Below, one piece after another: positions 3,128 through 62,590 of a DNA stretch of 64,000 nucleotides; position 1 is the stretch's first letter; each line of letters starts with the position of its first letter. The DNA lies in the NCBI RefSeq assembly GCF_000250635.1, contig NC_016940.1, positions 1,416,995-1,480,994 of the forward strand. The letters run 5' to 3'. The position numbers were made by a program, and so were the translations under genes. Origin of the DNA: Saprospira grandis str. Lewin (lineage in GTDB: Bacteria > Bacteroidota > Bacteroidia > Chitinophagales > Saprospiraceae). The notes beneath the pieces are model-generated. The model was not told the DNA's origin, searched no databases, and saw only the letters and a program-made list of their open reading frames with translations.

Positions 3128-3280
3128 TTGGGGCCTCCCCTCGCCCTCAAGGGCTCAGGGCGCTACGTTCCGGGGCTCGCTACTCGCTCGGCCCTTCACC
3201 AGCAAGCTGGCTCGGTCTGGCCCTGCGGGCCACCCCTACACATCGCTAGGCCATGATGGCCTTCGGCCATCCTTTAAAAG
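3128..3280 (+). repeat. dispersed GC-rich intergenic repeat, family copy 1, forward orientation
   Basis: GGGGCCTCC...GCGCTACGTTCCGGGGCTCGC...GGTCTGGCC...GGCCACCCCTACACATCGCTAGGCC; shares its core with more than 17 other copies in the window. Confidence 0.75.
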
Positions 3281-3344
3281 CTGTTAAAGCCTAAACGCTA
3301 AACAACGCCCTTAGCTCTACCCAATTTAAAACGCCTATTTAGCT

Positions 3345-3626
3345 ATGAGAGAAAAACCAAACCCCTATGAGGGCATGAGCCGCAAAGAACGGCGAGAAGC
3401 AGCCTTAGACCAAGTCTTTGGCAAGAACAGAAAAGAATATATGGGCAATATTTGGGGCTGGAAGTTTACCTATTTTGGCCTTGTTTTCCTATTAGCCGTT
3501 TTTGCCTTTGCGGCCTATGGCGTTTGGACAGGTAAAATTGACCTCAAAAAACAACAGTTTGAGGCCACCCCCTCCCGACATATCCAACAAAATAGCTTGC
3601 ACCATCAAAAAGATACAGCAAACTAG
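3345..3626 (+). CDS. small hypothetical membrane protein
   Basis: 93-aa ORF with one predicted TM helix (FGLVFLLAVFAFAAYGVW). No recognisable family. Confidence 0.3.
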   Translation: MREKPNPYEGMSRKERREAALDQVFGKNRKEYMGNIWGWKFTYFGLVFLLAVFAFAAYGVWTGKIDLKKQQFEATPSRHIQQNSLHHQKDTAN

Positions 3627-3668
3627 CTAGGCCTTTCTTTTTTCATCCTTTTTTAACATTGCTTTAAA

Positions 3669-4466
3669 ATGTCAGCCATTCCTTTCTATAAATATCAAGC
3701 AGCAGGCAATGATTTTGTCATCTTTGACAACCGAAATGGGCAGTTTTCTTTTTCGGCCCAAGAAATTGCCCGCATCTGCCATCGGCAGTTTGGCATTGGG
3801 GCCGATGGCATTATGCTCTTAGAAACAGATGCTTCTACAGACTTTAAGATGGTCTATTTTAATGCCGATGGCGCCCCCAGCAGTATGTGCGGCAATGGCG
3901 GAAGAGCTTTGGTCGCTTTTGCCCATCATTTGGGCCTCTTTGAAAATAGCTGTAGCTTTATGGCCGTGGATGGCCTGCACCAGGCCAAGGTCTTAGGGCC
4001 TAATTATATTGCCCTAGAAATGCAGGATTATAAGGATTTACTCCTGGCCGATACGCACTGCTTTTTAGATACGGGCTCTCCTCACCATATTGAGTTTGTC
4101 GCCCAATCCGAAGCCGTCGATGTGGTCCAAGAAGGCCGAAAAATTCGCTATGCCGCTCCCTATGGAGAAAAAGGCGCAAATGTCAATTTTGTAGAAGTCC
4201 TCGGCCCTAAACAACTCCAAATTGCCACCTACGAAAGAGGGGTCGAAAATGAAACTTTGGCCTGTGGCACCGGCGTTACCGCCGCCGCTATTGCTCATTT
4301 TCTACAACATGGCCCAAAAGCAAAAGGCCATCATCGCATAGAGGTCCGCGCCAAAGGCGGAGAACTAGCCGTAGAGTTCGATTACCAAGAAGAAATTAAA
4401 AATATTTGGCTGTTGGGCCCCGCCCAAGCCGTTTTTCAAGGCCAGTATTTCGGCCTCCAAAAATAA
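3669..4466 (+). CDS. dapF: diaminopimelate epimerase
   Basis: 265 aa. N-terminal YQAAGNDFVIFD (GNDF signature), active-site CGNGGR, and a second catalytic Cys in ACGTGV. Confidence 0.9.
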   Translation: MSAIPFYKYQAAGNDFVIFDNRNGQFSFSAQEIARICHRQFGIGADGIMLLETDASTDFKMVYFNADGAPSSMCGNGGRALVAFAHHLGLFENSCSFMAVDGLHQAKVLGPNYIALEMQDYKDLLLADTHCFLDTGSPHHIEFVAQSEAVDVVQEGRKIRYAAPYGEKGANVNFVEVLGPKQLQIATYERGVENETLACGTGVTAAAIAHFLQHGPKAKGHHRIEVRAKGGELAVEFDYQEEIKNIWLLGPAQAVFQGQYFGLQK

Positions 4467-4475
4467 AAGTAAATC

Positions 4476-4832
4476 ATGGGAAAAGATACCAACAAAGTGG
4501 TCCAAGAAAATAATATCCAATTGACTGTCGGCCTCAATGCCGATCGCACCCCCGTCAAAATTGAATGGGAAGCCTCCGATAGCCAAAACGGCCCCGAAGA
4601 ATGCAAGGCCATGCTGATCTCGCTCTTCGATAAGGCGCATAAAGATACCCTCAAAATTGATCTCTGGACCCTCGATATGCAGGTCAATGAAATGGACCGT
4701 TTTATGTACCAAACCCTACGCGGCCTAGCCGATACTTATTATCGGGCCACCAACAACCAACAACTCAGCAACGATTTTATGCGCTTTGTCCAGTACTTTG
4801 GCGAAAAAACAGAAACCCTACCCAAAAAGTAG
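4476..4832 (+). CDS. gldC: GldC-like gliding-motility associated protein
   Basis: 118 aa. The segment IDLWTLDMQVNEMDRFMYQTLRGLADTYYRAT resembles the GldC family as recalled. Size matches. Confidence 0.5.
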   Translation: MGKDTNKVVQENNIQLTVGLNADRTPVKIEWEASDSQNGPEECKAMLISLFDKAHKDTLKIDLWTLDMQVNEMDRFMYQTLRGLADTYYRATNNQQLSNDFMRFVQYFGEKTETLPKK

Positions 4833-4851
4833 GTCCGAATGCAAAGCCAAA

Positions 4852-4885
4852 GGCCCAACTCCTTATTGGAGTTGGGCCTTTTTTA
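4852..4885. terminator. bidirectional rho-independent terminator between convergent genes
   Basis: GGCCCAACTCC-TTATT-GGAGTTGGGCC followed by TTTTTT; an A/T run on the other side too. Confidence 0.6.
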
Positions 4886-6019
4886 TTCCCGCCAATCTTC
4901 TAGCCGCCAATGTTTTGCAGGCTGCAAAAGCGGTAGTTCCCTATACATTAAGGTATTGGCCCGCCAAGAAACCTCTTGGCCCGCCCACTGCCCAAATAAG
5001 AAGAGTTGGTCACTAGTTTGGCGATAATATAAACGAGCCCAAAGGCTATCGCTCTGCAAATCGTAGAGGGCAAGGCCCTCTTTGGGCAAATAGCGCAAAC
5101 GATAGCTCTTTTGCCTCCTCCCCTGCTGCATGATCCAATAGCCCCGACGATGAATATAGAATTGTTGGCCATCTTCTAGGGCATAGGCCCCATGCAAGGG
5201 CGGCCTAGTCTCCATATCATCATTCCAATGCTGCCGATGCCGATAGGGCCAAGCAATATTCAGAAGGATCAATAGGAGGAGGGCTGTTTTGAGTACTCTT
5301 TTTTGCCCTTTGCGAAAACTAGGCCCTAAGGACTGTTTTGCCGCCAAAGCCTGCCCGCTAGACCAAGCCCAAAGCCCCTTTAATCTGGGCCAAAGAAGAT
5401 ATAAGGCCATCCATAAAAGCCCAGCCGAATATATCTTGACGTTGATGTCAAAGCTGATATTGATGAGCAAAACCTGCCCCATGACCCCAGCCGCTAATAA
5501 AGCGCCCAATGCTCGACTAGGACGATAGAATAATGCTAATGCCGCTAAGAGTTCTACTATACCGGTCCAAAAACTATAGCTCCAAGAACTGCCCATGACC
5601 GACCAAAAAGCTAAATCCTTCTCGATATAGCCCAAAGGCTGATATAAGGTATTGGGCTCTGGCAAAAAGAACTGCTGTTTGAGCAGTTTGTCTAGACCAT
5701 AACGCCCCAGTTGCATGCCTAAGTAATAGGCGATACCCAATTGTAAATAAGGCTGCAACTGCCAACTCCAGTTTTTTTTGTCCCAAACTAATAGTAAAGC
5801 CGCCCCCGCAGCCAAAACAATAAGGTGCAAATAAAAGCCTGTACTATCCGATGCTAAGACATAATAGCCCTCTTCTATCCCTAAAGCTACCCCAGAAGCC
5901 TTATAAAAGGGCTCAAATACTTCGGCCCAAAAGCTAGAGTAGGCAGGCCATAGGGGCTGTTCAATTGGAGCCGTTAGGGCAAAAAGAATTAAGTATATAG
6001 TTGTCCAACGATAAAGCAT
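4883..6019 (-). CDS. hypothetical polytopic membrane protein (DoxX/HTTM-like N-terminal region plus soluble C-terminal domain)
   Basis: The track ORF 4883..6256 is trimmed to the first ATG outside the tandem repeat (MLYRWTTIYLILF...). Several TM helices, then a hydrophilic W/R-rich C-terminal domain. Confidence 0.5.
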   Translation of the reverse strand: MLYRWTTIYLILFALTAPIEQPLWPAYSSFWAEVFEPFYKASGVALGIEEGYYVLASDSTGFYLHLIVLAAGAALLLVWDKKNWSWQLQPYLQLGIAYYLGMQLGRYGLDKLLKQQFFLPEPNTLYQPLGYIEKDLAFWSVMGSSWSYSFWTGIVELLAALALFYRPSRALGALLAAGVMGQVLLINISFDINVKIYSAGLLWMALYLLWPRLKGLWAWSSGQALAAKQSLGPSFRKGQKRVLKTALLLLILLNIAWPYRHRQHWNDDMETRPPLHGAYALEDGQQFYIHRRGYWIMQQGRRQKSYRLRYLPKEGLALYDLQSDSLWARLYYRQTSDQLFLFGQWAGQEVSWRANTLMYRELPLLQPAKHWRLEDWRE

Positions 6020-6051
6020 CTGTATTTTTTTAGCTTTTCTATCTAATCCAG

Positions 6052-6540
6052 GGAGCCAATCCGAGATGTCCGTAGACCTCCGTGGCCGCCACGGAACCAA
6101 TCTGAGATGTCCGTAGCGCTCCGTGGCCACCACGGAGCTAATCTGAGATGTCCGTAGACCTCCGTGGCCGCCACGGAGCCAATCCGAGATGTCCGTAGAC
6201 CTCCGTGGCCGCCACGGAACCAATCCGAGATGTCCGTAGACCTCCGTGGCCGCCACGGAACCAATCCGAGATGTCCGTAGACCTCCGTGGCCGCCACGGA
6301 GCTAATCCGAGATGTCCGTAAGCCTCCGTGGCCGCCACGGAACCAATCCGAGATGTCCGTAGACCTCCGTGGCGGCCACGGAACCAATCCGAGATGTCCG
6401 TAGACCTCCGTGGCGGCCACGGAACCAATCTGAGATGTCCGTAGACCTCCCGTGGTGGCCACGGAACCAATCTGAGATGTCCGTAGACCTCCGTGGTGGC
6501 CACGGAACCAATCTGAGATGTCCGTAAGCTTCCGTGGCTC
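6052..6540. repeat. tandem repeat, 41-bp unit x about 12, each unit with a hairpin
   Basis: AACCAATCCGAGATGTCCGTAGACCTCCGTGGCCGCCACGG repeated head-to-tail with point variants. CCGTGG-CCG-CCACGG forms a 6-bp stem with a 3-nt loop. No unique spacers. Confidence 0.9.
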
Positions 6541-6635
6541 ATTTTAAGCCCCTCTTTTAATTTCCCTATGGTCCCCCTAATTAAAAAATAAAAAGCGCTT
6601 AGGCCCTAAAATAAGCGATCCTTTATTTAGAAGGA

Positions 6636-6667
6636 TAAAAAAAGGCCCCAAACTGTAGTTTGGGGCC
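6636..6667 (-). terminator. rho-independent terminator (minus strand)
   Basis: Minus-strand reading gives GGCCCCAAACTACAGTTTGGGGCC followed by TTTTTTT. Confidence 0.5.
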
Positions 6668-6715
6668 TTTCTGAGCCATCAAATTATTGAGCATAAAAGC
6701 TTGAGCAAGGAATTA

Positions 6716-6895: not shown

Positions 6896-6925
6896 TTATC
6901 CTCGGTTATTTTCTTCAGAAGTGCT

Positions 6926-9848: not shown

Positions 9849-9874
9849 TGGTCCTATATTATTCCTTTTTTGGG

Positions 9875-9935
9875 GCCCGCGGCCAGCTTTGCTGGCCGCC
9901 GCTATGCTGCGGGGCTCACTGTGCCGCTAATATCT
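9875..9935 (+). repeat. partial copy (terminal module) of the composite dispersed repeat
   Basis: TTTTTTGGGGCCCGCGGCCAGCTTTGCTGGCCGCCGCTATGCTGCGGGGCTCAC is identical to the start of the composite element at 11020 and to the reverse complement of the end of the element at 17660. Confidence 0.7.
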
Positions 9936-10857
9936 AACATGGGTATATTATTTTCTTTAACCCTTTCTTTTTGGATATACAAGGGCCAAGGACTAGGGGG
10001 CTACAGTCACAAATCTCTAATCTTTCTAAATTTTCGCATTTTAAATTAGACAAATCTGTACTAGTCGTCCCATCTCTATCAACCGTCCCAAACAAACTTA
10101 AAGACTTCAAATTGAGTTTATCTAGCCTTATTAGAGATAAAGGTATATTATAACAGCTTAACTTTTTCAAAAATCTAAGGTGGTGTATTTCTCTACAAAA
10201 ATCCAGATTTATTCTACCACCTCCACCTATAGATAAATCTATTTCTCTTAAATTAGGGAGGCGATCCAAAAAAGGTATACTATCTACATACATATAGCAT
10301 GAAGCTGAAAAACGCTCTAATGTGTCAGGGAGACAGATGTACCAATCTTTCAGAGATGGGAGGGAGCGTATTTCTAATTCTTTGAGTTTGTCTAATTCGA
10401 TAATTTCTTCAAAATTTTTCACAGAAGAACGTAGGGACAAGCTTTCTATAGCGCTCTGCTGTATCGCTTTAAAATCTATTCTGCTAAAAGATAAATGTAG
10501 TTTTTTTAGTGTACCTAGATCTTCTACAAAGCTAATATCTTCGGTTGTTGTCTCCAAATAGGATATATCTAAAGTCTCTAATTCTGAAGGAAATGAGGCC
10601 CTACTCAAAGGTATTTCAGTAAAACCTGTAAGTATCAAATACTTTATTTGGGGCAGTCGATCTAATAGATATAGTATAGATTCATTTTCTTCATATACGG
10701 TAAGTGAAATGGTTTCCAACCAATTCATTTTTGAAATTTCATCTAGTTGTTGCTCTGTTATTAGGTCTAACCACCCGCCTCCAAACTCCTCGCATAAAAA
10801 GAGACTTCCAGATCTTTCAATATTTTCCTCTTCGATTAAACCGTCGATATTGTCCAT
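9934..10857 (-). CDS. leucine-rich repeat (LRR) protein
   Basis: 307 aa. Repeated L..L.L....I..L..L segments (LETLDISYLETT, LKKLHLSFSRIDF, LKELEIRSLPSL, LREIDLSI). Strongly AT-rich coding region compared with neighbours. Confidence 0.65.
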   Translation of the reverse strand: MDNIDGLIEEENIERSGSLFLCEEFGGGWLDLITEQQLDEISKMNWLETISLTVYEENESILYLLDRLPQIKYLILTGFTEIPLSRASFPSELETLDISYLETTTEDISFVEDLGTLKKLHLSFSRIDFKAIQQSAIESLSLRSSVKNFEEIIELDKLKELEIRSLPSLKDWYICLPDTLERFSASCYMYVDSIPFLDRLPNLREIDLSIGGGGRINLDFCREIHHLRFLKKLSCYNIPLSLIRLDKLNLKSLSLFGTVDRDGTTSTDLSNLKCENLERLEICDCSPLVLGPCISKKKGLKKIIYPC

Positions 10858-11019
10858 GCAAATATTTTTAGTTAGATAATCCCATAAAGCTAAAAAAATA
10901 GTTTTTCATTTTTAGTAAAAAACTTTAAATCACAATTGCTCATGGCAAACAAAATTCTTGTTCTTAAATGAGTCGCGGACAGTAGTGGGAGGAGAATTGT
11001 TAAGCACCTATATTATTTT

Positions 11020-11560
11020 TTTTGGGGCCCGCGGCCAGCTTTGCTGGCCGCCGCTATGCTGCGGGGCTCACAGGCCTGTTCGGCCCTGCAGCCGCCTGCG
11101 GCGGCTTTGGTCTGGCCTGCGGCCACCCCTCCGCAGCGCTGGGCCGCTCATCAGGGCGGTTTAGCTTGGGCAGTTTGCTTTGGCCTTTTGGCCTTCCCTT
11201 TTAAGCGGTATTCGTCGCTGCGCTCCTCATTCGCCAATATGTCCCCGCCCACCCACCCCTCTGCGGGATTCCCTAAGGAATCCCTCGGGGAGGCGGGCAA
11301 CAAGCTAGCTGCAGACTTGGTCCAAGTTGCCTATAAGATGACGAAGCAATACCGCTCTTGCTGTAGGTGTTCACCTACAAGCACAGATAGCAGGCGGCAA
11401 AGCCGCCACAGGCTGAGGGGCTGTAGCAGGGCCGCCGAAGGCGGCAGACCAAGGCGCTTTGCGCCGAAGGGCCGAGCAGACCTGCGAGCTGCGCAATGGC
11501 CCGACCCGAAGGCCCAAAGGGCCGAAGGGGCAGCCCCAAAAAAAGAAACTACTTCCCCTC
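11020..11560 (+). repeat. composite dispersed repeat, about 540 bp (GC-rich repeat modules plus palindromic core), forward copy
   Basis: Near-identical to the reverse complement of 17150-17660. Contains the palindromes GTAGGTGAACACCTAC and GGGATTCCCTAAGGAATCCC. Overlaps the 3' end of the ketosynthase gene. Confidence 0.8.
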
Positions 11561-12835
11561 CCAACGGGCAAAAAGCAAACAACTATTCACATCCCCAAAG
11601 CCAAAACTCGCCTTGGCCATATAGCGCAAATCGGCCGCCTCCATTTGCAGGGGAATACAGGCGGCAGAAATCTGGGCCGCAATCTCGGGATGAAGATCTT
11701 CGGCATTTTTGCTGGGGTGCAAAAAGCCATGGACCAATTGCAAGACCACCGCCACCGACTCAATGGCGCCCGCCGCCGATAAACAATGACCAATCAAGGA
11801 TTTTAGGCTATTAATCTTAGGAAAATCATCGGCAGAGCGGCCCAAAGCCCGCAGCCAAGCCCCAATTTCGGCAGGGTCGCCCATGGTGGCCGTCAGATGG
11901 CCCGAAATAGCGTCTAGCTCCTGCGCAGCAATGCCCGCATCGGCCAAAGCCAAGCGAATACAGCGCTCAATCGCCTTGATATTGGGAGCCGTCATGCTGC
12001 CCCCCTGACGCTGACCGCCCGCATTTAAATGCCCCCCTTTTAGCTCGGCATAAATGTGCGCGCCCCTTGCTTGAGCCGAGGCCAAACTCTCTAAAACCAA
12101 TGCGCCAGCGCCACTGCCGGGCACAAAACCCGCCGCCTGCTCGCTCATTGGGCGAGAAGCCTGCTCTGGGCGGTCATTAAACTTGCGGCAAAGCACCCGC
12201 ATCGAATCAAAACCCGCCCAAATATATGGACCAGAACTGTTGCAGCTGCCGACCAGCATCCGCTCCGCTCGTCCCGACCGAATACGATCATAGCCCATTA
12301 ATATGGCCTCACTGCCCGTGCTGCAAGCCGCCGAATTAGAACTCAACTGATTGCCAAGGCCCAAAAAACCGCCCAAATAAGCGCTGATGCTGCTCTCCAT
12401 CGTCTGTTGAATCAAAGAAGAGCCAATGCGGCGGACCTTGCCCGCATCCACCTTATAAATTCCCTCTCGAACCACCTCAATACTAGACTGCCCGCCGCCA
12501 AAAATGCAGCCCGCCTCCCAATCGGGTTCCTCTTCCTTTTCAGAAATTGGCAAGGCGGCATCCTGCCAAGCCTCTAGGCCCGCCAAACAGCCATACATAA
12601 GGCCAGAGCCCTGAATATATCGCCTTTGTAAGGGCGTCAAAAAGCTATTAATGTACTCTTCGGTCAGCGGAGGGCTGCCTGCGACTCGACAAGCAAACTG
12701 TAGCTCCTCCAAATCTGGACGATAGCTAATTCCCGACTTTCCCGACTGCAAAGCGGCCAAAAAATCGGCCTTTCCCAAGGCGTTGGGAGCCACAACCCCC
12801 AAACCCGTAATCACGACTCTATTTTCCTGCATCAT
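11549..12835 (-). CDS. beta-ketoacyl-[ACP] synthase (FabF/FabB-like KAS I/II)
   Basis: 428 aa. Ketosynthase fold with active-site Cys in NSAACSTGSEA and downstream His motifs (HLTATMGDP; GHCLSAAG). Confidence 0.85.
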   Translation of the reverse strand: MMQENRVVITGLGVVAPNALGKADFLAALQSGKSGISYRPDLEELQFACRVAGSPPLTEEYINSFLTPLQRRYIQGSGLMYGCLAGLEAWQDAALPISEKEEEPDWEAGCIFGGGQSSIEVVREGIYKVDAGKVRRIGSSLIQQTMESSISAYLGGFLGLGNQLSSNSAACSTGSEAILMGYDRIRSGRAERMLVGSCNSSGPYIWAGFDSMRVLCRKFNDRPEQASRPMSEQAAGFVPGSGAGALVLESLASAQARGAHIYAELKGGHLNAGGQRQGGSMTAPNIKAIERCIRLALADAGIAAQELDAISGHLTATMGDPAEIGAWLRALGRSADDFPKINSLKSLIGHCLSAAGAIESVAVVLQLVHGFLHPSKNAEDLHPEIAAQISAACIPLQMEAADLRYMAKASFGFGDVNSCLLFARWEGK

Positions 12836-16206: not shown

Positions 16207-17136
16207 ATGATTATCTACAAGCCTTCGGGCTCTTTCTTCAGAGACATTCGCCATTTTAATCGCACAGCGGTCATTAGACGGCTGATTGCTTATGTGTTGT
16301 TTTATGGCTTGGCGGTGGCCGCTTTGGCGGCTCTATTCCTCTGGGCCGATTGGTCCAAATACCTGAAATTAGACGGACTGAGCAGCATTTTCTCCTTTCT
16401 GGGGGTGGTTTTGAGCATCCTTTTGGTTTTTCGGACCAATACAGCCTATGACCGTTGGTGGGAGGGCCGCAAGCAATGGGGTGCCTTGGTCAATCACAGT
16501 AGAAATTTGGCCATTGTGGGACAGGTTTGCTTTCCCGAAGAGAATAAGGCCCTTCGTCATCGTTTGGCCCTGCTGATCAGCAATTTTTGTCTGGCCTTTA
16601 AGGAGCATTTGCGGGAGGGGGTGCGTTTGGAGGAGCTGATTGAATTGACTGCCAGAGATCGGCAGTTGTATGCGGAGCAGCAGCATTTGCCCGCCTATAT
16701 TTCGGCCCAAATTCAGCAGTTGGTGGTGCAGGCCTACCGTCGTGGCGAAATCCGGGAGCTGGACCAGCTCAATTTTAAGCCGCACACCCAAGCCCTGCTA
16801 GATGTTTTGGGGGCCTGCGAACGCATCAAGAAAACGCCCATTCCCTTTTCTTATGAGATTTTTCTGCGGCTCTTTATTGTTTGCTATGCCCTGATTTTGC
16901 CCTTTGTGATTTTGCCCAGTTTTGGCTTTTGGGGCCTGCCTGTGCTGATGCTGATTCTCTTTGCTTTTTTGGGCCTAGAGCTCATGGCGGCCGAGATTCA
17001 GGACCCTTTTGGCCGAGATTGCAACGACCTCCCTACGGGCGATATGGCCCATACTATTCGCAAGAATGTTTTTGAGATTTTAGAGGCCAAGCATGAAAAA
17101 GGAAGTCTGACTAGCAATTATAGTAAGTTGTCTTAG
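16207..17136 (+). CDS. bestrophin/UPF0187 family anion channel
   Basis: 309 aa. VFRTNTAYDRWWEGRKQWG is the bestrophin-family signature; 4 TM helices. Begins 3 nt after the previous gene. Confidence 0.85.
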   Translation: MIIYKPSGSFFRDIRHFNRTAVIRRLIAYVLFYGLAVAALAALFLWADWSKYLKLDGLSSIFSFLGVVLSILLVFRTNTAYDRWWEGRKQWGALVNHSRNLAIVGQVCFPEENKALRHRLALLISNFCLAFKEHLREGVRLEELIELTARDRQLYAEQQHLPAYISAQIQQLVVQAYRRGEIRELDQLNFKPHTQALLDVLGACERIKKTPIPFSYEIFLRLFIVCYALILPFVILPSFGFWGLPVLMLILFAFLGLELMAAEIQDPFGRDCNDLPTGDMAHTIRKNVFEILEAKHEKGSLTSNYSKLS

Positions 17137-17149
17137 GAGGAGGATTTGG

Positions 17150-17660
17150 GGCTGCCCCTTCGGCCCTTTGGGCCTTCGGGTCGGGCTCTGTCGCAGCTCG
17201 CAGGTCTGCTCGGCCCTGCGCCGCCAAGGGCGGCTGGGTCTGGCCCTTTGGGCCACTGCTATCCATCCCTCAGCCTGCGGCGGCTTTGCCGCCTGCTATC
17301 TGTGCTTGTAGGTGAACACCTACAGCAAGAGCGGTATTGCTGCGCAAGCTTATAGGCAACTTGGACCAAGTCTGCAGCTAGCTTGTTGCCCGCCTCCCCG
17401 AGGGATTCCTTAGGGAATCCCGCAGAGGGGTGGGTGGGCGGGGACATATAAACGAATGAGGAGCGCAGCGACGAATACCGCTTAAAAGGGAAGGCCAAAA
17501 GGCCGAAGCCTAAAGATTTGAAGCAACAAAAAAAGTGGAGCGGCCCAGCGCTGCGGAGGGGTGGCCGAAGGCCAGACCGAGCTTTTGAGCAAAGCGAAAA
17601 AGCGAAGGGCCGAACAGGCCTGTGAGCCCCGCAGCATAGCGGCGGCCAGCAAAGCTGGCC
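17150..17660 (-). repeat. composite dispersed repeat, about 510 bp, inverted copy of 11020-11560
   Basis: Reverse complement matches 11020-11560 module for module (GGGATTCCTTAGGGAATCCC, GTAGGTGAACACCTAC, terminal GGCCAGCAAAGCTGGCCGCGGGCCCCAAAAAAAA). Confidence 0.8.
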
Positions 17661-17798
17661 GCGGGCCCCAAAAAAAAATAAAAAAATCTTACGCTCCTAA
17701 ATAGCTGATAAAAAACAACTTAGTCGGCGATTAAAAAATAAATGCAGAAAAAAAGCGGCTAAAAATGAAAAAAGATTTGCGAGATCCAAAAAGCTGCC

Positions 17799-19740: not shown

Positions 19741-20076
19741 ATGCCTACACCAGTCAACAAAAGTTATCATTTTTCTGATCAGGAAACTGAGATTCAGTTT
19801 CAGTTTAAAGACCTGCGCAAAATTGTTTTAGATCTTCGTGCCCTTAATCATGAGCTGAGGCAAAAAATTGTTCAGCTGCTTTTAGCCAATGGACCAATGA
19901 CTGTCACCCAACTCTACGTTAAGCTAAGAATTGAGCAATCTGTGGCCTCTCAGCATTTGGCGATTCTTAGAAAAGCCAATATTGTTGTGGCCGAAAGAGA
20001 AGGTAAGTTTATTCATTACCACATCCATCAAGAACAACTAGAAGCCGTCAAAGCACTGCTTTTGGGCCTACAGTAA
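19741..20076 (+). CDS. ArsR/SmtB-family HTH transcriptional regulator
   Basis: 111 aa. Winged-helix pattern LRALNHELRQKIVQLL...QSVASQHLAILRKANIVVAEREGK. A possible TAATTTTG -7 box sits at about 19660. Confidence 0.7.
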   Translation: MPTPVNKSYHFSDQETEIQFQFKDLRKIVLDLRALNHELRQKIVQLLLANGPMTVTQLYVKLRIEQSVASQHLAILRKANIVVAEREGKFIHYHIHQEQLEAVKALLLGLQ

Positions 20077-20164
20077 ATACACCTCTTTCCACCCTTCCAA
20101 AACTATTACCACTATGGCTGCATCTACTCTTTCGGGACTGTTCAGGATTTTGTGTATCAGAATA

Positions 20165-21465
20165 AAATTTGGTCAATAGAGACTAGGAGGCGAGTGGTAA
20201 AATTTAGATGACCCGGTCAGGGAAACAGACACAAAGCTGGCTGAAAACTTTGGTCCAACCAGCTCGTTTGACCTTCCATCGTTTTTGAATTTGCATAGCG
20301 GCTAAATAGATAGATTTTATGGCCGCAGCATCATTTGGAAATGAGCGTTTGTTATTGGTATATTTTCTCAGGCCAGCATTAAAGCCTTCAATAATATTTG
20401 TGGTATAAATAAGCTTTCTGATTTCTTGAGGATAGTATAAAAAGACAGTGAGATTGTCCCAGTTTTTCTCCCAAGATTTAATGATGTAAGGATAGCGATC
20501 ACCCCATTTTTCTTCAAAATCTTGAAGCCGATTTCTGGCCTCAGCTTCATTAGGAGCTGTATAAATGAGCTTAATATCTTTGGCCACTTTTCTTCTATTA
20601 GAGGCTTCAACAACCTTCATAGAATTGCGAATTTGATGGACCACACAAATTTGATGAGCTGCCTGAGGAAAGACGGCCTCAACGCTTTGGTCCAAGCCAG
20701 CTAGATTGTCTGAGCAGATAAATAAAACATCCTTTACCCCTCTTGTTTTAATGTCATTCAAAGTTGTAGCCCAATTTGCAGCAGTCTCTTTTTCAAAGAG
20801 ATACATGCCAATAATGTCTTGGTAGCCTGCTAAATTAACCCCAAGGACAATCATGCAAACCTTGCTCTTAATCTGCCCATCTTCTCTAATTTTATAGTGA
20901 ATCCCATCAATCCAAAGAATCGCATATTTCTCATCAAGAACCCGATTTTGCCACTCTCGAATACTATCTAAGAGGCTATTAGTAATGGTTGTAATTTGAC
21001 TCTTAGAGTACTGCTGCCCATAAATTTCATCCATATACTCTACTATATCAGACAGGCTCATACCTTTAGCATACAATAGTGTAATCACACTCTCCAGCTT
21101 AGCCGTCATCGACTTGTGTTTGGGGACCGTTACAGGGTCAAATTTACCCTCTCGATCTCTTGGTATTTCTATTTGTAATTTGCCACTTTCCGTCTTGATC
21201 TTCTTTGAAGAATGGCCATTTCTGCGATTTTCTCCTTGGACTTCTTCGCCACGAGCATACCCTAAATGCGCTGACATTTCTCCTTCTAACAAACTTTGAA
21301 TTCCTCGTTTTTTGAGGTCATCTGTTAGCTTGTCTAGCTCCTCAATGTTCTTCACATCTCCTAGTAGGCGGTTTAATAACTCTTCTTGTTTCTTGTCCAT
21401 AGCGGTACTTTTTTTCTAAGTAATTAAATTGATATTAAACCTCCTAATCTTTACCCCTTTTTTTG
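20165..21465 (-). mobile_element. IS256-family insertion sequence (boundaries approximate)
   Basis: A single mutator-type transposase gene flanked by imperfect terminal inverted repeats (GACTAGGAGG... at the left end; reverse complement GATTAGGAGG... at the right end). AT-rich compared with flanks. Confidence 0.6.
20204..21400 (-). CDS. IS256-family (mutator-type) transposase
   Basis: 398 aa with the typical IS256 transposase architecture (DxxH, CVVHQIRNS, D/E-rich catalytic core). Confidence 0.85.
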   Translation of the reverse strand: MDKKQEELLNRLLGDVKNIEELDKLTDDLKKRGIQSLLEGEMSAHLGYARGEEVQGENRRNGHSSKKIKTESGKLQIEIPRDREGKFDPVTVPKHKSMTAKLESVITLLYAKGMSLSDIVEYMDEIYGQQYSKSQITTITNSLLDSIREWQNRVLDEKYAILWIDGIHYKIREDGQIKSKVCMIVLGVNLAGYQDIIGMYLFEKETAANWATTLNDIKTRGVKDVLFICSDNLAGLDQSVEAVFPQAAHQICVVHQIRNSMKVVEASNRRKVAKDIKLIYTAPNEAEARNRLQDFEEKWGDRYPYIIKSWEKNWDNLTVFLYYPQEIRKLIYTTNIIEGFNAGLRKYTNNKRSFPNDAAAIKSIYLAAMQIQKRWKVKRAGWTKVFSQLCVCFPDRVI

Positions 21466-21801
21466 CCCATACACAAAATTTTAAACAGTCTCACTCTTTC
21501 TGACGATAATACGAATCCCTTCAACTTAGACAGTTTAGCAAAAGCAAACCAAACTATCCGCGCCTTGGCGCATGCCCTTCGTCTAGATATTCTATCTTAT
21601 ATTGACCAACATCCAGGCACAAATGTGAATAGTATTTATAATGCTTTAGAACTCGAGCAATCAATTACCTCTCAGCATTTGCGCATTCTTCGCCAAGCAG
21701 AATTGGTCAATTGTGTGCGAGAAGGAAAACAGATTCTCTATAGTCTTAACTACCCCAGACTGCATTCGTTACAGTCTGCGATCCAAGAATTTTTAAAATA
21801 A
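21463..21801 (+). CDS. ArsR/SmtB-family HTH transcriptional regulator (paralogue of 19741..20076)
   Basis: 112 aa. LAHALRLDILSYI...QSITSQHLRILRQAELVNCVREGK. Start uncertain because the N-terminus abuts or overlaps the IS right end. Confidence 0.6.
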   Translation: MPIHKILNSLTLSDDNTNPFNLDSLAKANQTIRALAHALRLDILSYIDQHPGTNVNSIYNALELEQSITSQHLRILRQAELVNCVREGKQILYSLNYPRLHSLQSAIQEFLK

Positions 21802-23563: not shown

Positions 23564-23599
23564 TTTCTATAATTTTAAAGTAGACTAATGTATTTTTGA

Positions 23600-44685: not shown

Positions 44686-44689
44686 AGTT

Positions 44690-44940
44690 TGGGGCTGCCG
44701 CTACGCCCTTCGGTTGTCGAACTGGCGCCCCTTTGGGGCTGGTTGTCGCTCTGCTCGGGGTCGGGCTGTTTATACCCGTTGGTCATCGAACTGGCGCCCC
44801 TTTGGGGCTGGTTGTCGCAGCTCGCTGTTACTTGCTTCGCTGCGTCGGCTCCCGTTGGTCGGGTCGCTCGCCCCCTGCTGCTGCCCATCCCTCAGCCATT
44901 CTGGCCTGCGGCCAGTGGGGCCTTGGCCGCCCTAGCTTAG
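44690..44940 (+). repeat. dispersed GC-rich repeat, subtype C, with an internal direct duplication
   Basis: TCGAACTGGCGCCCCTTTGGGGCTGGTTGTCGC occurs twice; ends with ...CCCATCCCTCAGCC. Related copies at 50325-50620 and, inverted, at 62365-62590. Confidence 0.7.
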
Positions 44941-44994
44941 TATTCTTCCCTTTTTATTGCTTTGGATTTAGGCCAAGCCTTCTAAATAATCCCT

Positions 44995-45350
44995 CAGTGC
45001 ATTTTTTTTCTAGCGAATGCTCCAAAAGAGTTGAAATGCAGTATTTCTTTTCCAGCAAATGCTAAGAATAAATCCACCAGAGCGTTTTTTTTCCAGCAAA
45101 TGCTCCAAAAGAGTTGAAATGCAGTATTTCTTTTCCAGCAAATGCTAAGAATAAATCCACCAAAGCGTTTTTTTTCTAGCAAATGGCCTGAGGGATGCTA
45201 TCTGAGCGTTTTTTTTCCAGCAAATGCTCTTTTGGAGTTCCAATGCAGTGTTTTTTTTCCAGCGAATGGCCTGAGGGATGCTATCTGGCCATTTTTTTCC
45301 CAGGCAATGCTCCAATGCAATCATATTGTCCTTATCTTTTTTCGGTAACC
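44995..45350 (+). repeat. tandem array of about 9 direct repeats with a TTTTTTTTCCAGCAAATGC core (period about 40 bp)
   Basis: Two near-identical 80-85-bp super-units (TTTTCCAGCAAATGCTCCAAAAGAGTTGAAATGCAGTATTTC + TTTTCCAGCAAATGCTAAGAATAAATCCACCAGAGCG) followed by degenerate units. Lies directly upstream of the gene at 45370. Confidence 0.85.
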
Positions 45351-46624: not shown

Positions 46625-46815
46625 CAACAGCTAGCGCTAGCCCATTGGTCCCTGCGCACTACAGGCCCCGAAGGGGCCGCAGGCCTAGCGATGTGCAGCA
46701 GTGGCCCGGAGGGCCAGACCCAGGCGGCTTTGCCGCCGCAGGGCCGAGCGAATAGCGAGCTGCGGAACGTAGCGCCCTGCGCCCTTCAGGGCGCAGGGAG
46801 GCCCCAAAACATAAA
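46625..46815 (-). repeat. dispersed GC-rich repeat, reverse orientation
   Basis: GGCCTAGCGATGTGCAGCAGTGGCCCGGAGGGCCAGACC...GGGCCGAGCGAATAGCGAGCTGCGGAACGTAGCGCC...GGAGGCCCCAAAAC. Confidence 0.75.
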
Positions 46816-50201: not shown

Positions 50202-50324
50202 TGGGCCTTTGGTCCTTTTTGCTCCCCGCCTGCTTTTCTGAGTAGGCGGGGATTTTTTGTTGGTTTGGGGGCAAAAAAAGTCCATCCCTTCCCTTCTGGA
50301 CTGGATGGCTAAATATCTACTGCT

Positions 50325-50815
50325 GTTTTGGGGCCTCCGCAGCAAAGCTGCGGCGGTTACTCCCTTCGGTCGTCGAACTGCGAACTAAAGTTCTTGTTGT
50401 CGTTTCAGGGCTCGCAGGTCTGCTCGGCCCTGCGCTTCGGTGCTACGCACCTTCGGTTACTCCCTTTGGTCGTTGAACTGCGCCCTAAAGGGCTTGTTCT
50501 GGTCTGGCCTTTGGCCACTGCTGCACATCGGTTACTCCCTTTGGTCGTCGAACTGCGGACTAAAGTCCTTGTTGTGGCCAGGCGCTGCGCGCCTTTGCGG
50601 CCCTTTGGGCCTATTGCATGGCGGCGGCTGAAAGCCGCTGGCCATTTTTGGGTTTCAACCCGAAAAATTGGCTGAGGGATGGATAGCAGTGGCGCGAAGC
50701 GCCAGACCCAGGGCTTTTGCAGCGAAGCGAAAAAGCCCGCAGGGCCGAGCAGACCTGCGAGCTGCGGCACAGCCCGACCCAGCCGCAGGCTGGGGCAGCC
50801 CCAAAAAAAATTAGT
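50325..50815. repeat. compound dispersed-repeat block (subtype C forward plus subtype B reverse)
   Basis: GGTTACTCCCTTTGGTCGTCGAACTGCG.. occurs three times internally. The shared core GGGCTCGCAGGTCTGCTCGGCCC occurs once in each orientation. Confidence 0.75.
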
Positions 50816-51659
50816 CCTTCTTGGTCTGTTCTACAAGAGTTTCTATAGTATTATATAGATTCTGGATAATATTCGATTGGTTTTGGACCATTTTGCGGAG
50901 CTCCTCCATTTCTGAGCGGAGCATATTATTGATATTGGAGGGAGAGGGTAAAAAGGGAGAAATTTTGGCTCGGACATACCAAATTTCTTGAATATCCTTC
51001 ACGCTCATTTCGAAGGGTTCATAATAAGTATTATCGGAGAGAAGCAGCAGTTTTTGCTCGGCTTTGATATGATTGTGTACGCGTTTGATGAGGACATCGC
51101 CCTTAGTGACCACCACATAGACATAATTATCTTTGAGAGAAGAGGCCCAGAGGCTAGGTTCTAGGTAGCTACAGACCACCTTATCGCCTTCAAAAAGGGT
51201 GGGTTCCATACTATCTCCGGAGAGATCGAAAGAGCGGTGAGTGCCCACCTTATACTTATAATCGGGCAGGGTATAATTGGGTAATTCCTGAATAAAAGTG
51301 GGGTCTTTAGACTCTGAGGCATAGCCAGCTTGAGCGGGCACGGGCACATGCACAATCCGTTCATCATTGTGAGAATCGGTCACTACGGTAAGGACCTTAA
51401 GATTAGCTTGTGCGTCTTCGGTCATAAAGAGCGGGCCTTCTCCGGAGAAAAGATAAACGGGATTTAGCTTATAGGCATCGATTGCTTTTCGGAGCAACTC
51501 GATGGTTACATCTCGGCGTTTTTTGAGGATTTCGCTCAGGCTTTGGGGCAGATAATCGAGAGAGAGGGCAAATTGTCGGCTAGAGCGGATGCGTTGCTCT
51601 TTTTTGAGTTGGTCATGACAATGGATAAAGCGTTCGGTTACTACAGAATTCATAAGCAA
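50811..51659 (-). CDS. XRE-HTH + S24 peptidase (LexA/CI-like) repressor with a C-terminal coiled-coil extension
   Basis: 282 aa. N-terminal HTH; S24 motifs GDSMEPT (Ser) and KRV (Lys); extra C-terminal region of about 60 aa. Confidence 0.7.
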   Translation of the reverse strand: MLMNSVVTERFIHCHDQLKKEQRIRSSRQFALSLDYLPQSLSEILKKRRDVTIELLRKAIDAYKLNPVYLFSGEGPLFMTEDAQANLKVLTVVTDSHNDERIVHVPVPAQAGYASESKDPTFIQELPNYTLPDYKYKVGTHRSFDLSGDSMEPTLFEGDKVVCSYLEPSLWASSLKDNYVYVVVTKGDVLIKRVHNHIKAEQKLLLLSDNTYYEPFEMSVKDIQEIWYVRAKISPFLPSPSNINNMLRSEMEELRKMVQNQSNIIQNLYNTIETLVEQTKKD

Positions 51660-55904: not shown

Positions 55905-56030
55905 TTGGGGCCTCCCGCCTGCGGCGGGCGCTACGTTGCGGGGCTCGCAGGTCTGCTCGGCCCTTCAGCGCTTGCAGCGCTTCGGTCTGGCCTACGGCCA
56001 CCCCTCCACATCGCTAGGCCAATAACGCCC
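55905..56030 (+). repeat. dispersed GC-rich repeat, forward orientation
   Basis: GGGGCCTCCCGCCTGCGGCGGGCGCTACGTTGCGGGGCTCGCAGGTCTGCTCGGCCC...GGTCTGGCCTACGGCCACCCCTCCACATCGCTAGGCC. Confidence 0.75.
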
Positions 56031-56125
56031 AGCCATTAAGCAAAAACTAAACTGAGAATAGACCCTTATCACCTGATGCAGCTCGTACTGCCGTAGGGAA
56101 AAGTGCCGTCCTCTTGCTTCAGGAT
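56030..56125 (+). promoter_or_regulatory. TPP (thiamine pyrophosphate) riboswitch, THI element
   Basis: CTGAGAATAGACCCTTATCACCTGATGCAGCTCGTACTGCCGTAGGGAA closely matches the THI-box consensus (CUGAGA ... ACCUGAU..GGAUAAUGCCAGCGUAGGGAA). P1 closes with AAGCAA / TTGCTT. Immediately upstream of thiS-thiC. Confidence 0.8.
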
Positions 56126-58289: not shown

Positions 58290-58299
58290 AGATAGCTAC

Positions 58300-60556: not shown

Positions 60557-61335
60557 AGATAGGCATGGATACATTAAAAATTGCCGATAAGGAATTTAAC
60601 TCAAGATTATTTACGGGCACAGGCAAGTTTGCCTCTTCTGCCCTGATGCGGGAGGCCCTTTTGGCTTCTGGTTCGGAGCTGGTCACGGTGGCCCTCAAGC
60701 GGATGAATGTGGAGAAGTCGGAGGACCCTATTGTGGACCAACTTGATGCGCCACACATTCACCTTTTGCCCAATACCTCTGGGGCTCGCACGGCTGAGGA
60801 GGCCATTTTTGCGGCCCAATTGGCTAGAGAGGCCTTGGGGACCAACTGGTTGAAACTCGAAATTCACCCAGATCCCAAATACTTGATGCCCGATCCCATC
60901 GAGACCCTCAAAGCGGCCGAAAAGCTCGTCAAATTGGGCTTTGTGGTCCTGCCCTACATCCATGCTGATCCCGTGCTTTGCAAGCGCTTGGAAGAGGTGG
61001 GCGTGGCTGCCGTCATGCCTTTGGGCTCGCCCATTGGGAGCAATAAAGGCCTAAGAACCCTTGATTTTCTAGAGATTATCATTGAGCAAAGTCAGTTGCC
61101 CGTGGTGGTAGATGCGGGTATCGGTAGCCCTTCTGATGCCGCCAAAGCCCTAGAAATGGGGGCCGATGCGGTTTTGGTCAATACGGCCATTGCCGCTGCT
61201 CAAGACCCGGTAGAAATGGCCAAAGCCTTTAAATTGGGCGTTATGGCGGGGCGCATGGCCTTTGAGGCCCGCCTAGCCGAGCAGCGCATGGGGGCCGAGG
61301 CCAGCAGTCCCCTGACCTCCTTCCTTGGCGATTAA
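60553..61335 (+). CDS. thiG: thiazole synthase ThiG
   Basis: 260 aa. [15 protein letters not shown] and [13 protein letters not shown] motifs. Confidence 0.9.
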
Positions 61336-61409
61336 GCGCCCATCAACAACCTTTAGCAAGCCCTACTATTCTTGGATAGTGGGGCTTTTCTTATTGATTT
61401 TTTGGGGCC

Positions 61410-61560
61410 TGCCGCCTTCGGCGGCCGGGCCCTTGCAGGGCTCGCAGGTCTGCTCGGCCCTTCAGCCCTTCGGGCTTCGGTCTGGCCTGACGGCCACCCT
61501 TTCAGGCCCCTAGGCCGTTTGGCCTTCGGCCATCATAGCTGCAGGTTAAAACCCGCAGCC
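61410..61560 (+). repeat. dispersed GC-rich repeat, forward orientation
   Basis: GGGGCCTGCCGCCTTCGGCGGCCGGGCCCTTGCAGGGCTCGCAGGTCTGCTCGGCCC...GGTCTGGCCTGACGGCCACCC. Confidence 0.75.
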
Positions 61561-61659
61561 AATTTCGGAACAACTAAGCTAGATTTTGGCCCCCCTTTGG
61601 CCTGCAGCTTAAAAGCCGCAGGACCTGAAAAAAGACTGTTTAAAATTTTGTGTCTGCCC

Positions 61660-61845
61660 TTTCCTCTGCCTAGGGACAAGCCCCTAGGCTAGCTTTTTTA
61701 GACAGCCCTCTAAAGAGGGCCTTTGGATAAGGTTCTTCTCTACGATAACAACTGAACAAGGCCTTGTATATCAATAGTTGAGGCCCTTGTCAGGGCTGAC
61801 TCCATTGGATTAGCCTAGGGGCTTGTCCCTAGGCGACGATTGGCC
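61660..61845. repeat. 22-bp perfect inverted repeat pair flanking a roughly 120-bp hairpin-rich segment
   Basis: GCCTAGGGACAAGCCCCTAGGC at about 61662 and its reverse complement GCCTAGGGGCTTGTCCCTAGGC at about 61812. Internal hairpin GCCCTCTAAAGAGGGC. Confidence 0.7.
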
Positions 61846-61904
61846 AAATCCTAAGCAGCTAAAAGCCCAAATTTTATTCTAATACACAAAATTCTGAATA
61901 GTCT

Positions 61905-62087
61905 CCCAAACCGAACTAGTTCACCTCCAGACCGAACTAGTTTACCTCCAGACCGAACTAGTTCATCTCCAGACCGAACTAGTTCATCTCCAGACCGAAC
62001 TAGTTCACCTCCAGACCGAACTAGTTCACCTCCAGACCGAACTAGTTTACCTCCAGACCGAACTAGTTTACCTCCAGACCGAACTTT
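61905..62087 (+). repeat. iteron-like tandem repeat, 22-bp unit x about 8.3
   Basis: CCAGACCGAACTAGTT[CT]A[CT]CTC repeated head-to-tail, followed by an AT-rich tract (about 62088-62160). Confidence 0.85.
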
Positions 62088-62364
62088 TGCCCTGTTTGAT
62101 TTTGTTACATTATTTTCATTTTTAACAATTCCTTAACAATTGGAAACCAAAATCCTGTTTCTGCAGCCTAAAGGCCGCAGCCAATCTTGTTGGGCCATCA
62201 TTTTGTTCGCCGCAGCGGCTTAAAAGCCCCTGCTTCATTGGAGATAGGCGAAAGCATTCAGTTTTCAGGTCTTGCGGCTTTTAAGCTGCAAGCCATGGGA
62301 CCGCTAAAAGCTTGCTAATTGGGACCTAATCTGGCTGCGGGTTTCAACCCGCAGGTCTATATAT

Positions 62365-62590
62365 CCATCCTACAGGCCCGAAGGGCCGCAGGCCTAGCGA
62401 TGTGCAGCAGTGCGGCGCAGCCGCAGACCAAGGCCGTCAGGCCGCAGGGCCGAGCGACCCGACCAACGGGAGCCGACGCAGCGAAGCAAGTAATAGCGAG
62501 CTGCGGAACGACAACAAGGCCTTTAGGCCGCAGTTCGACGACCAAAGGGAGTAACCGCCTGCCGCAGGCAGGAGGCCCCCAAAAACAAAA
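62365..62590 (-). repeat. dispersed GC-rich repeat, subtype C, reverse
   Basis: GGCCTAGCGATGTGCAGCAGTGCGGCGCAGCCGCAGACC...GGGCCGAGCGACCCGACCAACGGGAGCCGACGCAGCGAAGCAAGTAATAGCGAGCTGCGGAACGACAACAAGGCC...CGACGACCAAAGGGAGTAACCG. Confidence 0.75.

Follow-up and report, generated by a model that had tools for sequence, protein, structure and literature searches.

Folded intergenic repeats of alternating orientation at high density in Saprospira grandis: a possible REP/BIME-type DNA element

In this study, we analysed a 64-kb stretch of DNA from the marine bacterium Saprospira grandis (hereafter the window) and found in it 21 copies and one fragment of a dispersed repeat, a density of one copy per 3.05 kb, with all 21 copies falling between open reading frames (ORFs). 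The original prediction for this DNA had claimed a dense family of GC-rich dispersed repeats with at least 18 copies in 64 kb, and our count agrees with it; the five-helix architecture, strict alternation of orientation, cross-species positional stability and module exchange described below were all absent from that prediction. We tentatively interpret the family as an ancient folded-DNA repeat of the repetitive extragenic palindrome (REP)/bacterial interspersed mosaic element (BIME) type, arranged in inverted pairs, subject to concerted evolution and served by a putative protein partner, and we put the probability of this interpretation at roughly 45%. Among the identities proposed before, a REP/BIME-like element is the closest description, the copies being extragenic, near gene ends, in inverted pairs and of alternating orientation. 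No published description was found in the literature searched, and the family appears to be undescribed both there and in Rfam.

The window has a GC content of ~47%, and the repeats form GC islands of 65–70% in it, the element-linked islands amounting to ~4 kb or 6% of the window. Eighteen uninterrupted copies were extracted from the candidates, oriented and aligned (alignment A1), and a covariance model (R1) built on A1 recovered 20 full copies and one 5′ fragment from the window (Table 1; copies are named by their first position). The 21st copy, 44688, is rearranged and was identified by visual inspection; in Saprospira sp. CCB-QB6 the orthologous element is intact (100.6 bits). The GC-rich elements of the window measure 115–215 nt, and the length of the unit was determined as 113–213 nt (median 128). 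The core GCTCGCAGGTCTGCTCGGCCC (21 nt), which had been called invariant, is present, with 14 window matches at three mismatches or fewer against 0 expected from shuffles; it is not strictly invariant, as nine of the 14 are exact and ~30% of copies have an alternative 6-nt spacer (GCTCGC-TNTTCG-CTCGGCCC).

Read in the sense direction, an element runs from TTT and GGGGC through hairpin P2, a junction that reads CGCTACGTT in type A and GGTCGGGCTGT in type B, the 5′ strand of P3, the core, P4, GGTCTG, P5 and the 3′ strand of P3 to its 3′ end, CATCGCTAGGCC or CATCCCTCAGCC, whose final five bases pair with the 5′ end to give P1. Its five helices are the terminal P1, the long-range P3 and the variable hairpins P2, P4 and P5, and an additional short helix, P1b, belongs to the fold. 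The outer 5′ boundary is sharp, each of the three bases preceding GGGGC being T in 93–98% of cases; at the other end one to three further simple hairpins usually follow the element, which makes the 3′ boundary fuzzy. The core has the form GCTCG-N6/7-GCTCGGCCC, in which two GCTCG half-sites, direct repeats about one helical turn apart, flank a two-state spacer of 6–7 nt; in two window copies a 35-nt module is inserted in this spacer. Smaller modules (35–50 nt) are nested in some copies, the main one consisting of GTTACTCCCKTYGGTCGTCGAACTG, a variable hairpin and CTTGTTGT, and they lie always in the orientation of the host element and at few fixed junction positions (51 copies). The separate modules and palindromes reported earlier (GGTCTGGCC, GGCCAC...CATCGCTAGGCC and the palindromes) are likewise present, as helix strands and hairpins of this one architecture.

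The fold is conserved. The RNA-fold prediction proposed with the original claims gave a consensus structure when RNAalifold was applied to A1, in which the terminal and the long-range helix appear and 15 of 29 pairs show compensatory changes; conserved secondary structure is thus present, in the form of five covarying helices. Across 149 distinct copies, 98.7% of pair cells are standard, compared with 75.2% in column shuffles and 31–64% with slid partners, and there are 906 double-sided and zero one-sided changes; this alignment was fitted to the model, which inflates the pairing somewhat, and extraction by regular expression and by hidden Markov model independently agrees. The termini covary in four types (CT/AG in 140 copies, TG/CA in 87, CC/GG in 36 and TT/AA in 16) and are complementary in 279 of 284 cases. 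P4 takes 214 distinct sequences in 321 copies, almost all of them perfect hairpins.

Several features bear on which molecule folds. Of 1450 pairs scored at the five outermost positions of the P4 stem, 1380 are Watson–Crick, 5 are G–T and 11 are A–C. Among the perfect hairpins, 645 of 954 have 3-nt loops in register with the stem, 550 of the 645 closed by C–G, so that CTTCGG forms a C(TTC)G triloop rather than a UUCG tetraloop. The loops are strongly asymmetric on the sense strand, with TTC 194 times against GAA 6, TGC 177 against GCA 2, and TNC as a whole 399 against GNA 9, which places C(GNA)G triloops on the opposite strand. Such triloops form DNA mini-hairpins of great stability (PMC3201870, PMC13037366). 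When energies were calculated with parameters for DNA, the GNA-loop strand proved the more stable one in 256 of 284 copies, and the loop asymmetry implies that a single strand of defined polarity matters. Stems without wobble pairs, triloops and an orientation independent of transcription favour folded DNA over RNA, none of the three being decisive. As for the RNA-level function that had also been suggested, only two tRNAs reach the Rfam gathering score in the window, and a search of 50300–50830 at E-values up to 10 returned nothing relevant; with no Rfam match, no G–U pairs in the variable helices and orientation independent of genes, that suggestion finds no support here.

The family extends far beyond the window. 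A scan with the covariance model, as had been proposed, gave 257 hits in 800 kb of loci from S. grandis DSM 2844 and was positive in relatives too; the family is genome-wide, and local segmental duplication does not account for it. The exact core occurs in at least 120 eight-kb blocks, nearly all of which, among the matches listed, come from DSM 2844 and a few from metagenome-assembled genomes (MAGs) of Lewinellaceae and Saprospiraceae. In a metagenome in which a Saprospira relative predominates, 0.87 Mb contained a further ~330 copies. By extrapolation, a 4.4-Mb genome may contain ~1,000–1,500 copies, roughly 5% of its length. S. grandis WH and Saprospira sp. CCB-QB6 each have a 53-kb plasmid, and 50 kb scanned of either one contained 22 and 20 copies, respectively, with no annotated feature beneath them; among 72,556 plasmids these two alone match, and the viral contigs and phage records searched gave no match. 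In Lewinellaceae (56–62% GC) and Saprospiraceae MAGs (41–47% GC) the same core, both spacer variants and the layout are kept, with diverged arms and a density much lower than in Saprospira, while no element was found in Aureispira or in another Saprospiraceae genus (21 kb of either). A core match in a Gammaproteobacteria MAG looks like chance, the other motifs being absent from its flanks and the model giving no match. In this form the family is confined to Saprospira, and diverged relatives of it occur in other Saprospirales. The two plasmids (NZ_CP110855.1, L249; NZ_CP116809.1, L250) carry pur, pyrF, guaAB and the paa operon, and look like essential secondary replicons because they hold genes for purine, pyrimidine and GMP biosynthesis along with paa.

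The most interesting feature of the family is the alternation of its copies. They follow one another in the window as + − + − + − + − and then − + − + − + − + − + − + −, so that 19 of 20 neighbours alternate, copy 44688 included. When the window, the DSM 2844 loci and the metagenome relative are taken together, 390 of 438 neighbour pairs alternate (binomial p ~1e-67), as do 21 of 21 and 18 of 19 on the annotated plasmids. The rule persists within the co-directional paa and pur operons, where copies occupy successive intergenic spacers, and it holds across divergent and convergent transcription units and promoter regions. Close pairs, with cores within 600 bp, number 37 convergent, 1 divergent and 0 tandem; the head-to-head pair and the compound block described before are real, at 23597–23929 and 50324–50808. 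Intervals from a + to a − copy, with the 3′ tails inward, are bimodal: 75 of 237 are shorter than 350 bp, most others measure 0.7–3 kb, and 103 of 237 lack an ORF of at least 150 amino acids. Intervals from − to +, with the 5′ T-run ends inward, are under 700 bp in 1 of 153 cases and nearly always contain genes. The sharp T-run ends therefore face outward from the short intervals and adjoin coding sequence on their other side, the median distance of 5′ ends being 25 nt to a stop codon or 76 nt to a start codon, against 113–161 nt for 3′ ends. About two thirds of the inverted pairs are 0.7–3 kb apart with genes between them, and these genes are ordinary ones (thiC, dapF, gldC-like, arginase, purH, purD, paaZ).

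Orientation does not follow the flanking genes: by crude ORF calls, copies between tandem genes are sense in 62 cases and antisense in 56, and elements are commoner between convergent than divergent genes (69 vs 39). The window by itself had suggested that copies after stop codons are mostly in sense; the larger set of 321 copies did not confirm this. Alternation fails at a single place in the window, which is spanned by a 1979-aa ORF (25777–31716) of strongly skewed AT composition; a hit at 30181–30299 inside this gene would restore perfect alternation, and at 21 bits it is not convincing. A same-orientation exception is shared by both plasmids, near TetR and TPP-enzyme (thiamine pyrophosphate) genes, the element positions there being conserved between species.

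Whenever one copy is inserted between a + and a − neighbour, one adjacency of same orientation results, so that random single insertions do not yield such an array; homologous inversions keep the number of same-orientation adjacencies, and deletions between direct copies only lower it. An array that is not buildable singly points to gain as inverted pairs or to a constraint between nearest neighbours. The copies are arranged as inverted pairs, and they were probably gained as such. Partners have a median identity of 0.70–0.75, against 0.73 for random copies, and tight doublets are significantly less alike; origin by inverted duplication is therefore rejected, as is selection for pairing between partners. 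To our knowledge, alternation on the kilobase scale, even inside biosynthetic operons, has no precedent.

Orthologous loci were available from S. grandis DSM 2844 (L014, L043 and L047; 93–95% identity to the window), Saprospira sp. CCB-QB6 (L122; 80–86%), a JGI contig covering three window elements (L124; 96%) and the metagenome relative (L160 and L188; 84–91%). In DSM 2844, CCB-QB6 and the metagenome relative, 21 of 21 orthologous sites are filled in the same orientation, and the three elements covered by L124 are likewise present. The interiors of the elements change at these fixed positions. In CCB-QB6, the orthologue of copy 31877 is identical except for a replaced hairpin P4, that of 35235 has both P3 strands, the spacer and P4 swapped, and that of 37235 is of type B, its whole interior and both termini having been replaced; pairing is kept each time. 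Over the orthologue comparisons, unswapped parts are 97–100% identical where the flanks are 80–91% identical. Copy 61398 is 100% identical to its orthologue in a relative with flanks at 91%. The spacer flips its state in otherwise identical orthologues (11018 vs L014, AGGCCTG vs TCTTCG; 37235 vs L124). Strains also differ in which nested modules are carried by copies 50324 (first module only in DSM 2844), 50670 (an extra 44-nt module in DSM 2844), 62391 (both modules missing in L043 and L188) and 44688. Within one genome, the nearest relative of a copy has a median identity of ~90%, and near-identical copies are almost absent.

These comparisons suggest that the family is old, positionally stable and evolving in concert through short exchanges among copies, resident copies staying put over the long term and trading whole modules with others. 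Exchanges that end between the two strands of P3 or P1 should break helices; as broken helices hardly ever occur, the fold is probably under some selection at resident sites, and helix-breaking chimeras would be removed. Fixed positions combined with cassette-like exchange of the interior, helices kept, separate structural from sequence constraint.

The centre of the doublet 61398/62391 is 875 bp long in the window and 105 bp in relative L188, which marks it as an indel hot spot; the ~770 bp of non-coding DNA between the two copies includes a 21-bp tandem repeat (CCAGACCGAACTAGTTYAYCT, ~10 copies) at 61885–62115. A 1152-bp segment (9866–11017) with a leucine-rich repeat gene (9934–10857, − strand) is absent from DSM 2844 (L014); it is bounded by a ~70-bp direct duplication made up of flank and the first 54 nt of the element, and its breakpoint lies directly after GGGGCTCAC, inside the core. 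The doublets 11016–11542 and 17134–17677, which share a central linker of ~110 nt, are inverted copies of each other and flank a 5.6-kb segment with lipid-synthesis and other genes; no inversion of this segment was found in DSM 2844 or the metagenome relative.

In the interpretation that we prefer, the functional form would be a DNA strand or an extruded cruciform, read by a putative strand-specific protein, for which a RAYT-like (REP-associated tyrosine transposase) HUH nuclease or a recombinase is our leading guess. The DNA-strand form is suggested because the stems are strictly Watson–Crick, C(GNA)G triloops lie on one strand and orientation is blind to transcription.

Several points weigh against this interpretation. 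A typical copy does not fold with better energy than its shuffled versions (z = 0.2); energy is uninformative here because any sequence so GC-rich folds strongly, which leaves covariation by itself to carry the case for structure, and much of the covariation could stem from whole-hairpin swaps instead of independent compensatory mutations. Folded-strand models predict an orientation bias relative to replication, and no replication strand bias was found, + and − copies being equally frequent in each 400-kb bin of the chromosome. Transcription of the many copies located within operons is inevitable, so that an RNA-level effect is possible. The element is 3–5 times longer than a REP and far more complex, and GTAG occurs only in type A, on the opposite strand (...ACGTAGCGCC and P2), type C having ATAG and type B neither. 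REP/BIME elements are not known to alternate over kilobases, and this model leaves the alternation unexplained. Finally, no cognate protein was found: no ORF with HUH and Y motifs occurs in the ~1.85 Mb of sampled loci that were searched for HUH/Y1 ORFs, a weak and insensitive test because such genes are usually single copy.

Further searches for a partner were also negative. A phmmer search with an approximate IS200 TnpA query sequence gave no hit in the sampled DNA, and Pfam annotation of 20 genes beside elements in the low-density Lewinellaceae/Saprospiraceae loci returned only unrelated housekeeping genes. An IS200/IS605-derived palindrome-associated transposable element was rejected, as there is neither a replication strand bias nor a TnpA-like ORF in the sample. 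Two regulatory identities were rejected as well: ordinary terminators with A-tract, hairpin and T-tract are distinct from the elements, whose T-run precedes the stem and does not follow it, and the position needed for the Bacteroidetes TAnnTTTG promoter box shows no A enrichment.

Of the rival explanations, the one that survives best, although we regard it as doubtful, holds that the copies are cis-acting RNA elements, acting as intercistronic or 3′-untranslated structures (e.g., exonuclease blocks) or by sense–antisense pairing into processing stalks like those flanking rRNA. It would fit the rich structural covariation and the many copies co-transcribed in operons (plasmid paa and pur; thi), where alternation makes each neighbouring pair complementary within the transcript; pairing of this kind is poorly matched by partners that are no more alike than random copies. 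The 5′ ends close to stop codons, and the copy placed between a stop codon and a terminator, also suit RNA. Yet the orientation is unrelated to gene direction and alternates across divergent and convergent units and promoter regions as well, the variable helices lack G–U pairs, the loops are 3-nt and in register with no UUCG tetraloop in CTTCGG, and no Rfam family was recovered even at E = 10.

A more speculative possibility, which we hold unlikely, is that a DNA-level system working across the genome uses the copies as oriented boundary or synapsis sites and acts on nearest-neighbour inverted pairs; this reading builds on the insertion argument given above. A protein would read the core on the folded strand and bring about looping, bridging or recombination; if copies were gained or viable only in pairs, gene-independent alternation on both chromosome and plasmid would be explained. 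Were this true, the family would be a bacterial counterpart of a paired-site orientation rule and a new chromosome-organising repeat.

Quite unlikely, in our judgement, are architectural sites in double-stranded DNA, at which a nucleoid or topology protein would bind in an oriented manner, as gyrase and IHF do on BIMEs, with the hairpins incidental. A site of this sort needs neither five Watson–Crick helices nor loops that differ between strands, and we know of no binding protein for the Saprospira element. The regular spacing of ~1 per 3 kb on chromosome and plasmid, the positions stable across species, the 21-nt core kept in genomes of very different GC and the gene-independent orientation pairing rule are what such sites would show.

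Less probable again are site-specific recombination sites, whether attC-like folded sites or invertase/resolvase sites, under which only alternating arrays would be viable, direct neighbours leading to lethal deletions. The very strict nearest-neighbour alternation agrees with this, as do the strand-specific folding with structure kept and sequence varying, as in attC, and the strain-specific 1152-bp segment that breaks exactly inside the core. The core itself, with half-sites one turn apart around a two-state spacer, is suggestive too, but its half-sites are direct and not inverted. Moreover, the elements have no linked integrase or recombinase, the plasmids carrying only an ordinary recombinase-family gene, the elements flank housekeeping genes in conserved order, and ~60 kb of orthologous comparison with three relatives showed no inversion or cassette reshuffling. 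An integron array was rejected, since orientation alternates, the flanking genes are housekeeping genes and no integrase was seen.

An ordinary MITE (miniature inverted-repeat transposable element), that is, a non-autonomous derivative of a DDE insertion sequence spread recently by cut-and-paste with inverted pairs as composite transposons, is highly improbable and, as regards recent activity, largely refuted: the sharp TTT–GGGGC outer boundary, the complementary termini, the foldback-like tight doublets and the nested modules gained and lost between strains would suit it, but the terminal inverted repeat, for which TTTGGGGCC is the corresponding terminal sequence, spans only 5–7 bp, none of the four doublets in the window shows the target-site duplications that had been proposed as a check, the 3′ side of the element varies, none of the 21 orthologous sites differs in occupancy in three relatives, the copies are diverged and mosaic with no recent burst, paired copies enclose housekeeping genes whose synteny is conserved, and the only transposase of the window is of the unrelated IS256 type.

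Table 1. Copies of the repeat in the window, with terminal type, strand and support (type A, GGGGCCT...AGGCC; B, GGGGCTG...CAGCC; C, GGGGCCC...GGGCC; D, GGGGCTT...AAGCC).
Position	Strand	Type	Description	Support
3124–3252	+	A	Copy, spacer TACTCG	R1 110.5 bits
6763–6889	−	A	Copy	R1 121.9 bits; DSM 2844 orthologue has different interior
9866–9925	+		5′ fragment, first 54 nt of element, = start of copy 11018	Repeat search 100% identity; R1 26.6 bits
11018–11145	+	C	Copy, left half of tight inverted doublet	R1 103.2 bits
11411–11543	−	B	Copy, right half of doublet with 11018	R1 95.5 bits; ortholog comparison
17142–17275	+	B	Copy, left half of doublet = inverted copy of 11016–11542	R1 113.3 bits; present in L160
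17542–17675	−	C	Copy, right half of doublet with 17142	R1 107.3 bits; ortholog comparison
23597–23718	+	A	Copy, left half of tight doublet, divergent promoter region	R1 113.9 bits; orthologue in L160
23792–23929	−	D	Copy, right half of doublet with 23597	R1 111.2 bits
31877–32028	−	A	Copy, extended P2 hairpin	R1 115.7 bits
35235–35355	+	A	Copy	R1 109.6 bits
37235–37359	−	A	Copy	R1 111.7 bits
40785–40911	+	B	Copy	R1 102.3 bits; ortholog comparison
41807–41934	−	B	Copy	R1 108.7 bits; ortholog comparison
44688–44897	+	B	Rearranged copy, P4 and P5 missing	By eye; repeat search
46682–46811	−	A	Copy	R1 120.6 bits
50324–50538	+	A	Copy, left half of doublet, three nested ~50-nt modules	R1 36.1 bits; repeat search
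50670–50808	−	B	Copy, right half of doublet with 50324	R1 114.1 bits
55901–56020	+	A	Copy, directly upstream of TPP-riboswitch-like stretch and thiC	R1 123.4 bits
58346–58484	−	B	Copy, between thiC and next thiamine gene	R1 114.2 bits
61398–61516	+		Copy	R1 102.1 bits
62391–62585	−	A	Copy, nested module ~62511–62555, 35-nt spacer module ~62457–62491	R1 37.6 bits

Some copies in Table 1 deserve a closer description. Copy 6763 lies, as had been claimed, between a gene and its terminator, the gene being an aromatic amino acid lyase (stop at 6926) and the terminator a strong terminator-like hairpin at 6672–6639 found by a terminator scan; the copy placed inside the thi operon is likewise there (58346). 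The nested modules of copy 50324 occupy 50335–50403, 50435–50503 and 50510–50578; in copy 44688 they occupy 44706–44749 and 44775–44818, with a 35-nt spacer module at ~44830–44864. A small recurrent hairpin module (CTGCGGGTTGAAACCCGCAG-like) is found in the tails or centres beside main elements, at 50600–50640, 61535–61560 and 62340–62365. Upstream of thiC, a TPP riboswitch match at 56006–56118 stays below the Rfam gathering score (29 vs 54.3 bits, E = 0.0013) and begins within the last 15 nt of the element 55901; the riboswitch has either diverged or been disturbed by that element.

Other repeats and mobile DNA also occur in the window. A tandem array of ~14 × 41 bp (5966–6532) lies inside or overlaps the ORFs 4883–6256 and 6138–6542, which have no Pfam match, and the stretch 6062–6702 has no counterpart in the DSM 2844 locus L014. 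AT-rich direct repeats of 41/83 bp (TTTTTTCCAGCAAATGCT...) lie at 44988–45312, in the + to − interval between element 44688 and an AhpC/TSA-like gene. The transposase gene mentioned above (IS256/Mutator family, 20204–21400; Pfam E = 1e-108) is the only one in the window and unrelated to the repeat; positions 20022–21542 are missing from L160, which marks this copy as a strain-specific insertion.

The elements also have practical consequences, in that they break short-read assemblies and generate false ORFs. A 2,970-bp Logan contig (58454–61423, L121) is the only public contig encoding the exact thiamine-operon protein, and both of its ends lie within elements (58346 and 61398), which indicates that the repeats cut the assembly there. 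The false ORFs anticipated by the original prediction were recovered, with spurious frames arising from elements at 11041–11814, 50328–50675, 50405–50770, 61372–61692 and 62319–62621.

Among known systems, the Saprospira family most resembles the REP/BIME elements of E. coli and other Proteobacteria (PMC2817692, PMC3333891), which are also high-copy, GC-rich and extragenic, lie near gene ends, form hairpins, occur as module mosaics and inverted doublets, involve a folded single DNA strand and are often included in operon transcripts; REPs in alternating orientation define BIMEs (PMC2817692). It differs in many respects. A REP is one imperfect palindrome of 20–40 nt, whereas the Saprospira element has 115–140 nt, five helices with long-range pairs and perfect stems; it has no universal GTAG or CGTC foot; its alternation spans kilobases and genes, whereas that of REP/BIME is confined to clusters; and its host belongs to Bacteroidota, with no RAYT in the DNA sampled. 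The tight inverted doublets, with outward defined ends, a short variable spacer and hundreds of copies, recall the REPINs (REP doublets forming hairpins) of Pseudomonas (PMC3116915). Unlike a REPIN, the Saprospira doublet is not one long hairpin, since its halves are no more alike than random copies.

For a protein partner, the best lead, and a lead only, comes from the same phylum: RAYT genes of subclass 2.6 in Bacteroidetes are flanked by non-canonical secondary structures with further copies in the genome (Quentin et al., 2018, PMC6006769). The likeness to the Saprospira element is one of description, and the main text and two supplements of that paper do not name Saprospira, Lewinella or Haliscomenobacter.

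Integron attC sites share with the family a conserved structure with variable sequence, strand-specific folding, a length of ~60–140 nt and a place directly after stop codons; however, they form same-orientation arrays beside an integrase gene and have R″/R′ boxes, whereas the Saprospira copies alternate, are spread over the genome and have no linked integrase. Pneumococcal BOX, the Correia elements and neisserial intergenic mosaic elements of Neisseria, Rickettsia palindromic elements and the small dispersed repeats of cyanobacteria are similarly modular, with conserved ends, internal units that vary in number, small units nested in larger ones and dense occurrence, and have no sequence or structural similarity to it. 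We know of none among these with long-range covarying helices or kilobase alternation. The five-helix architecture, the cassette-like exchange of modules and, above all, the alternation over kilobases set the Saprospira family apart from known repeats.

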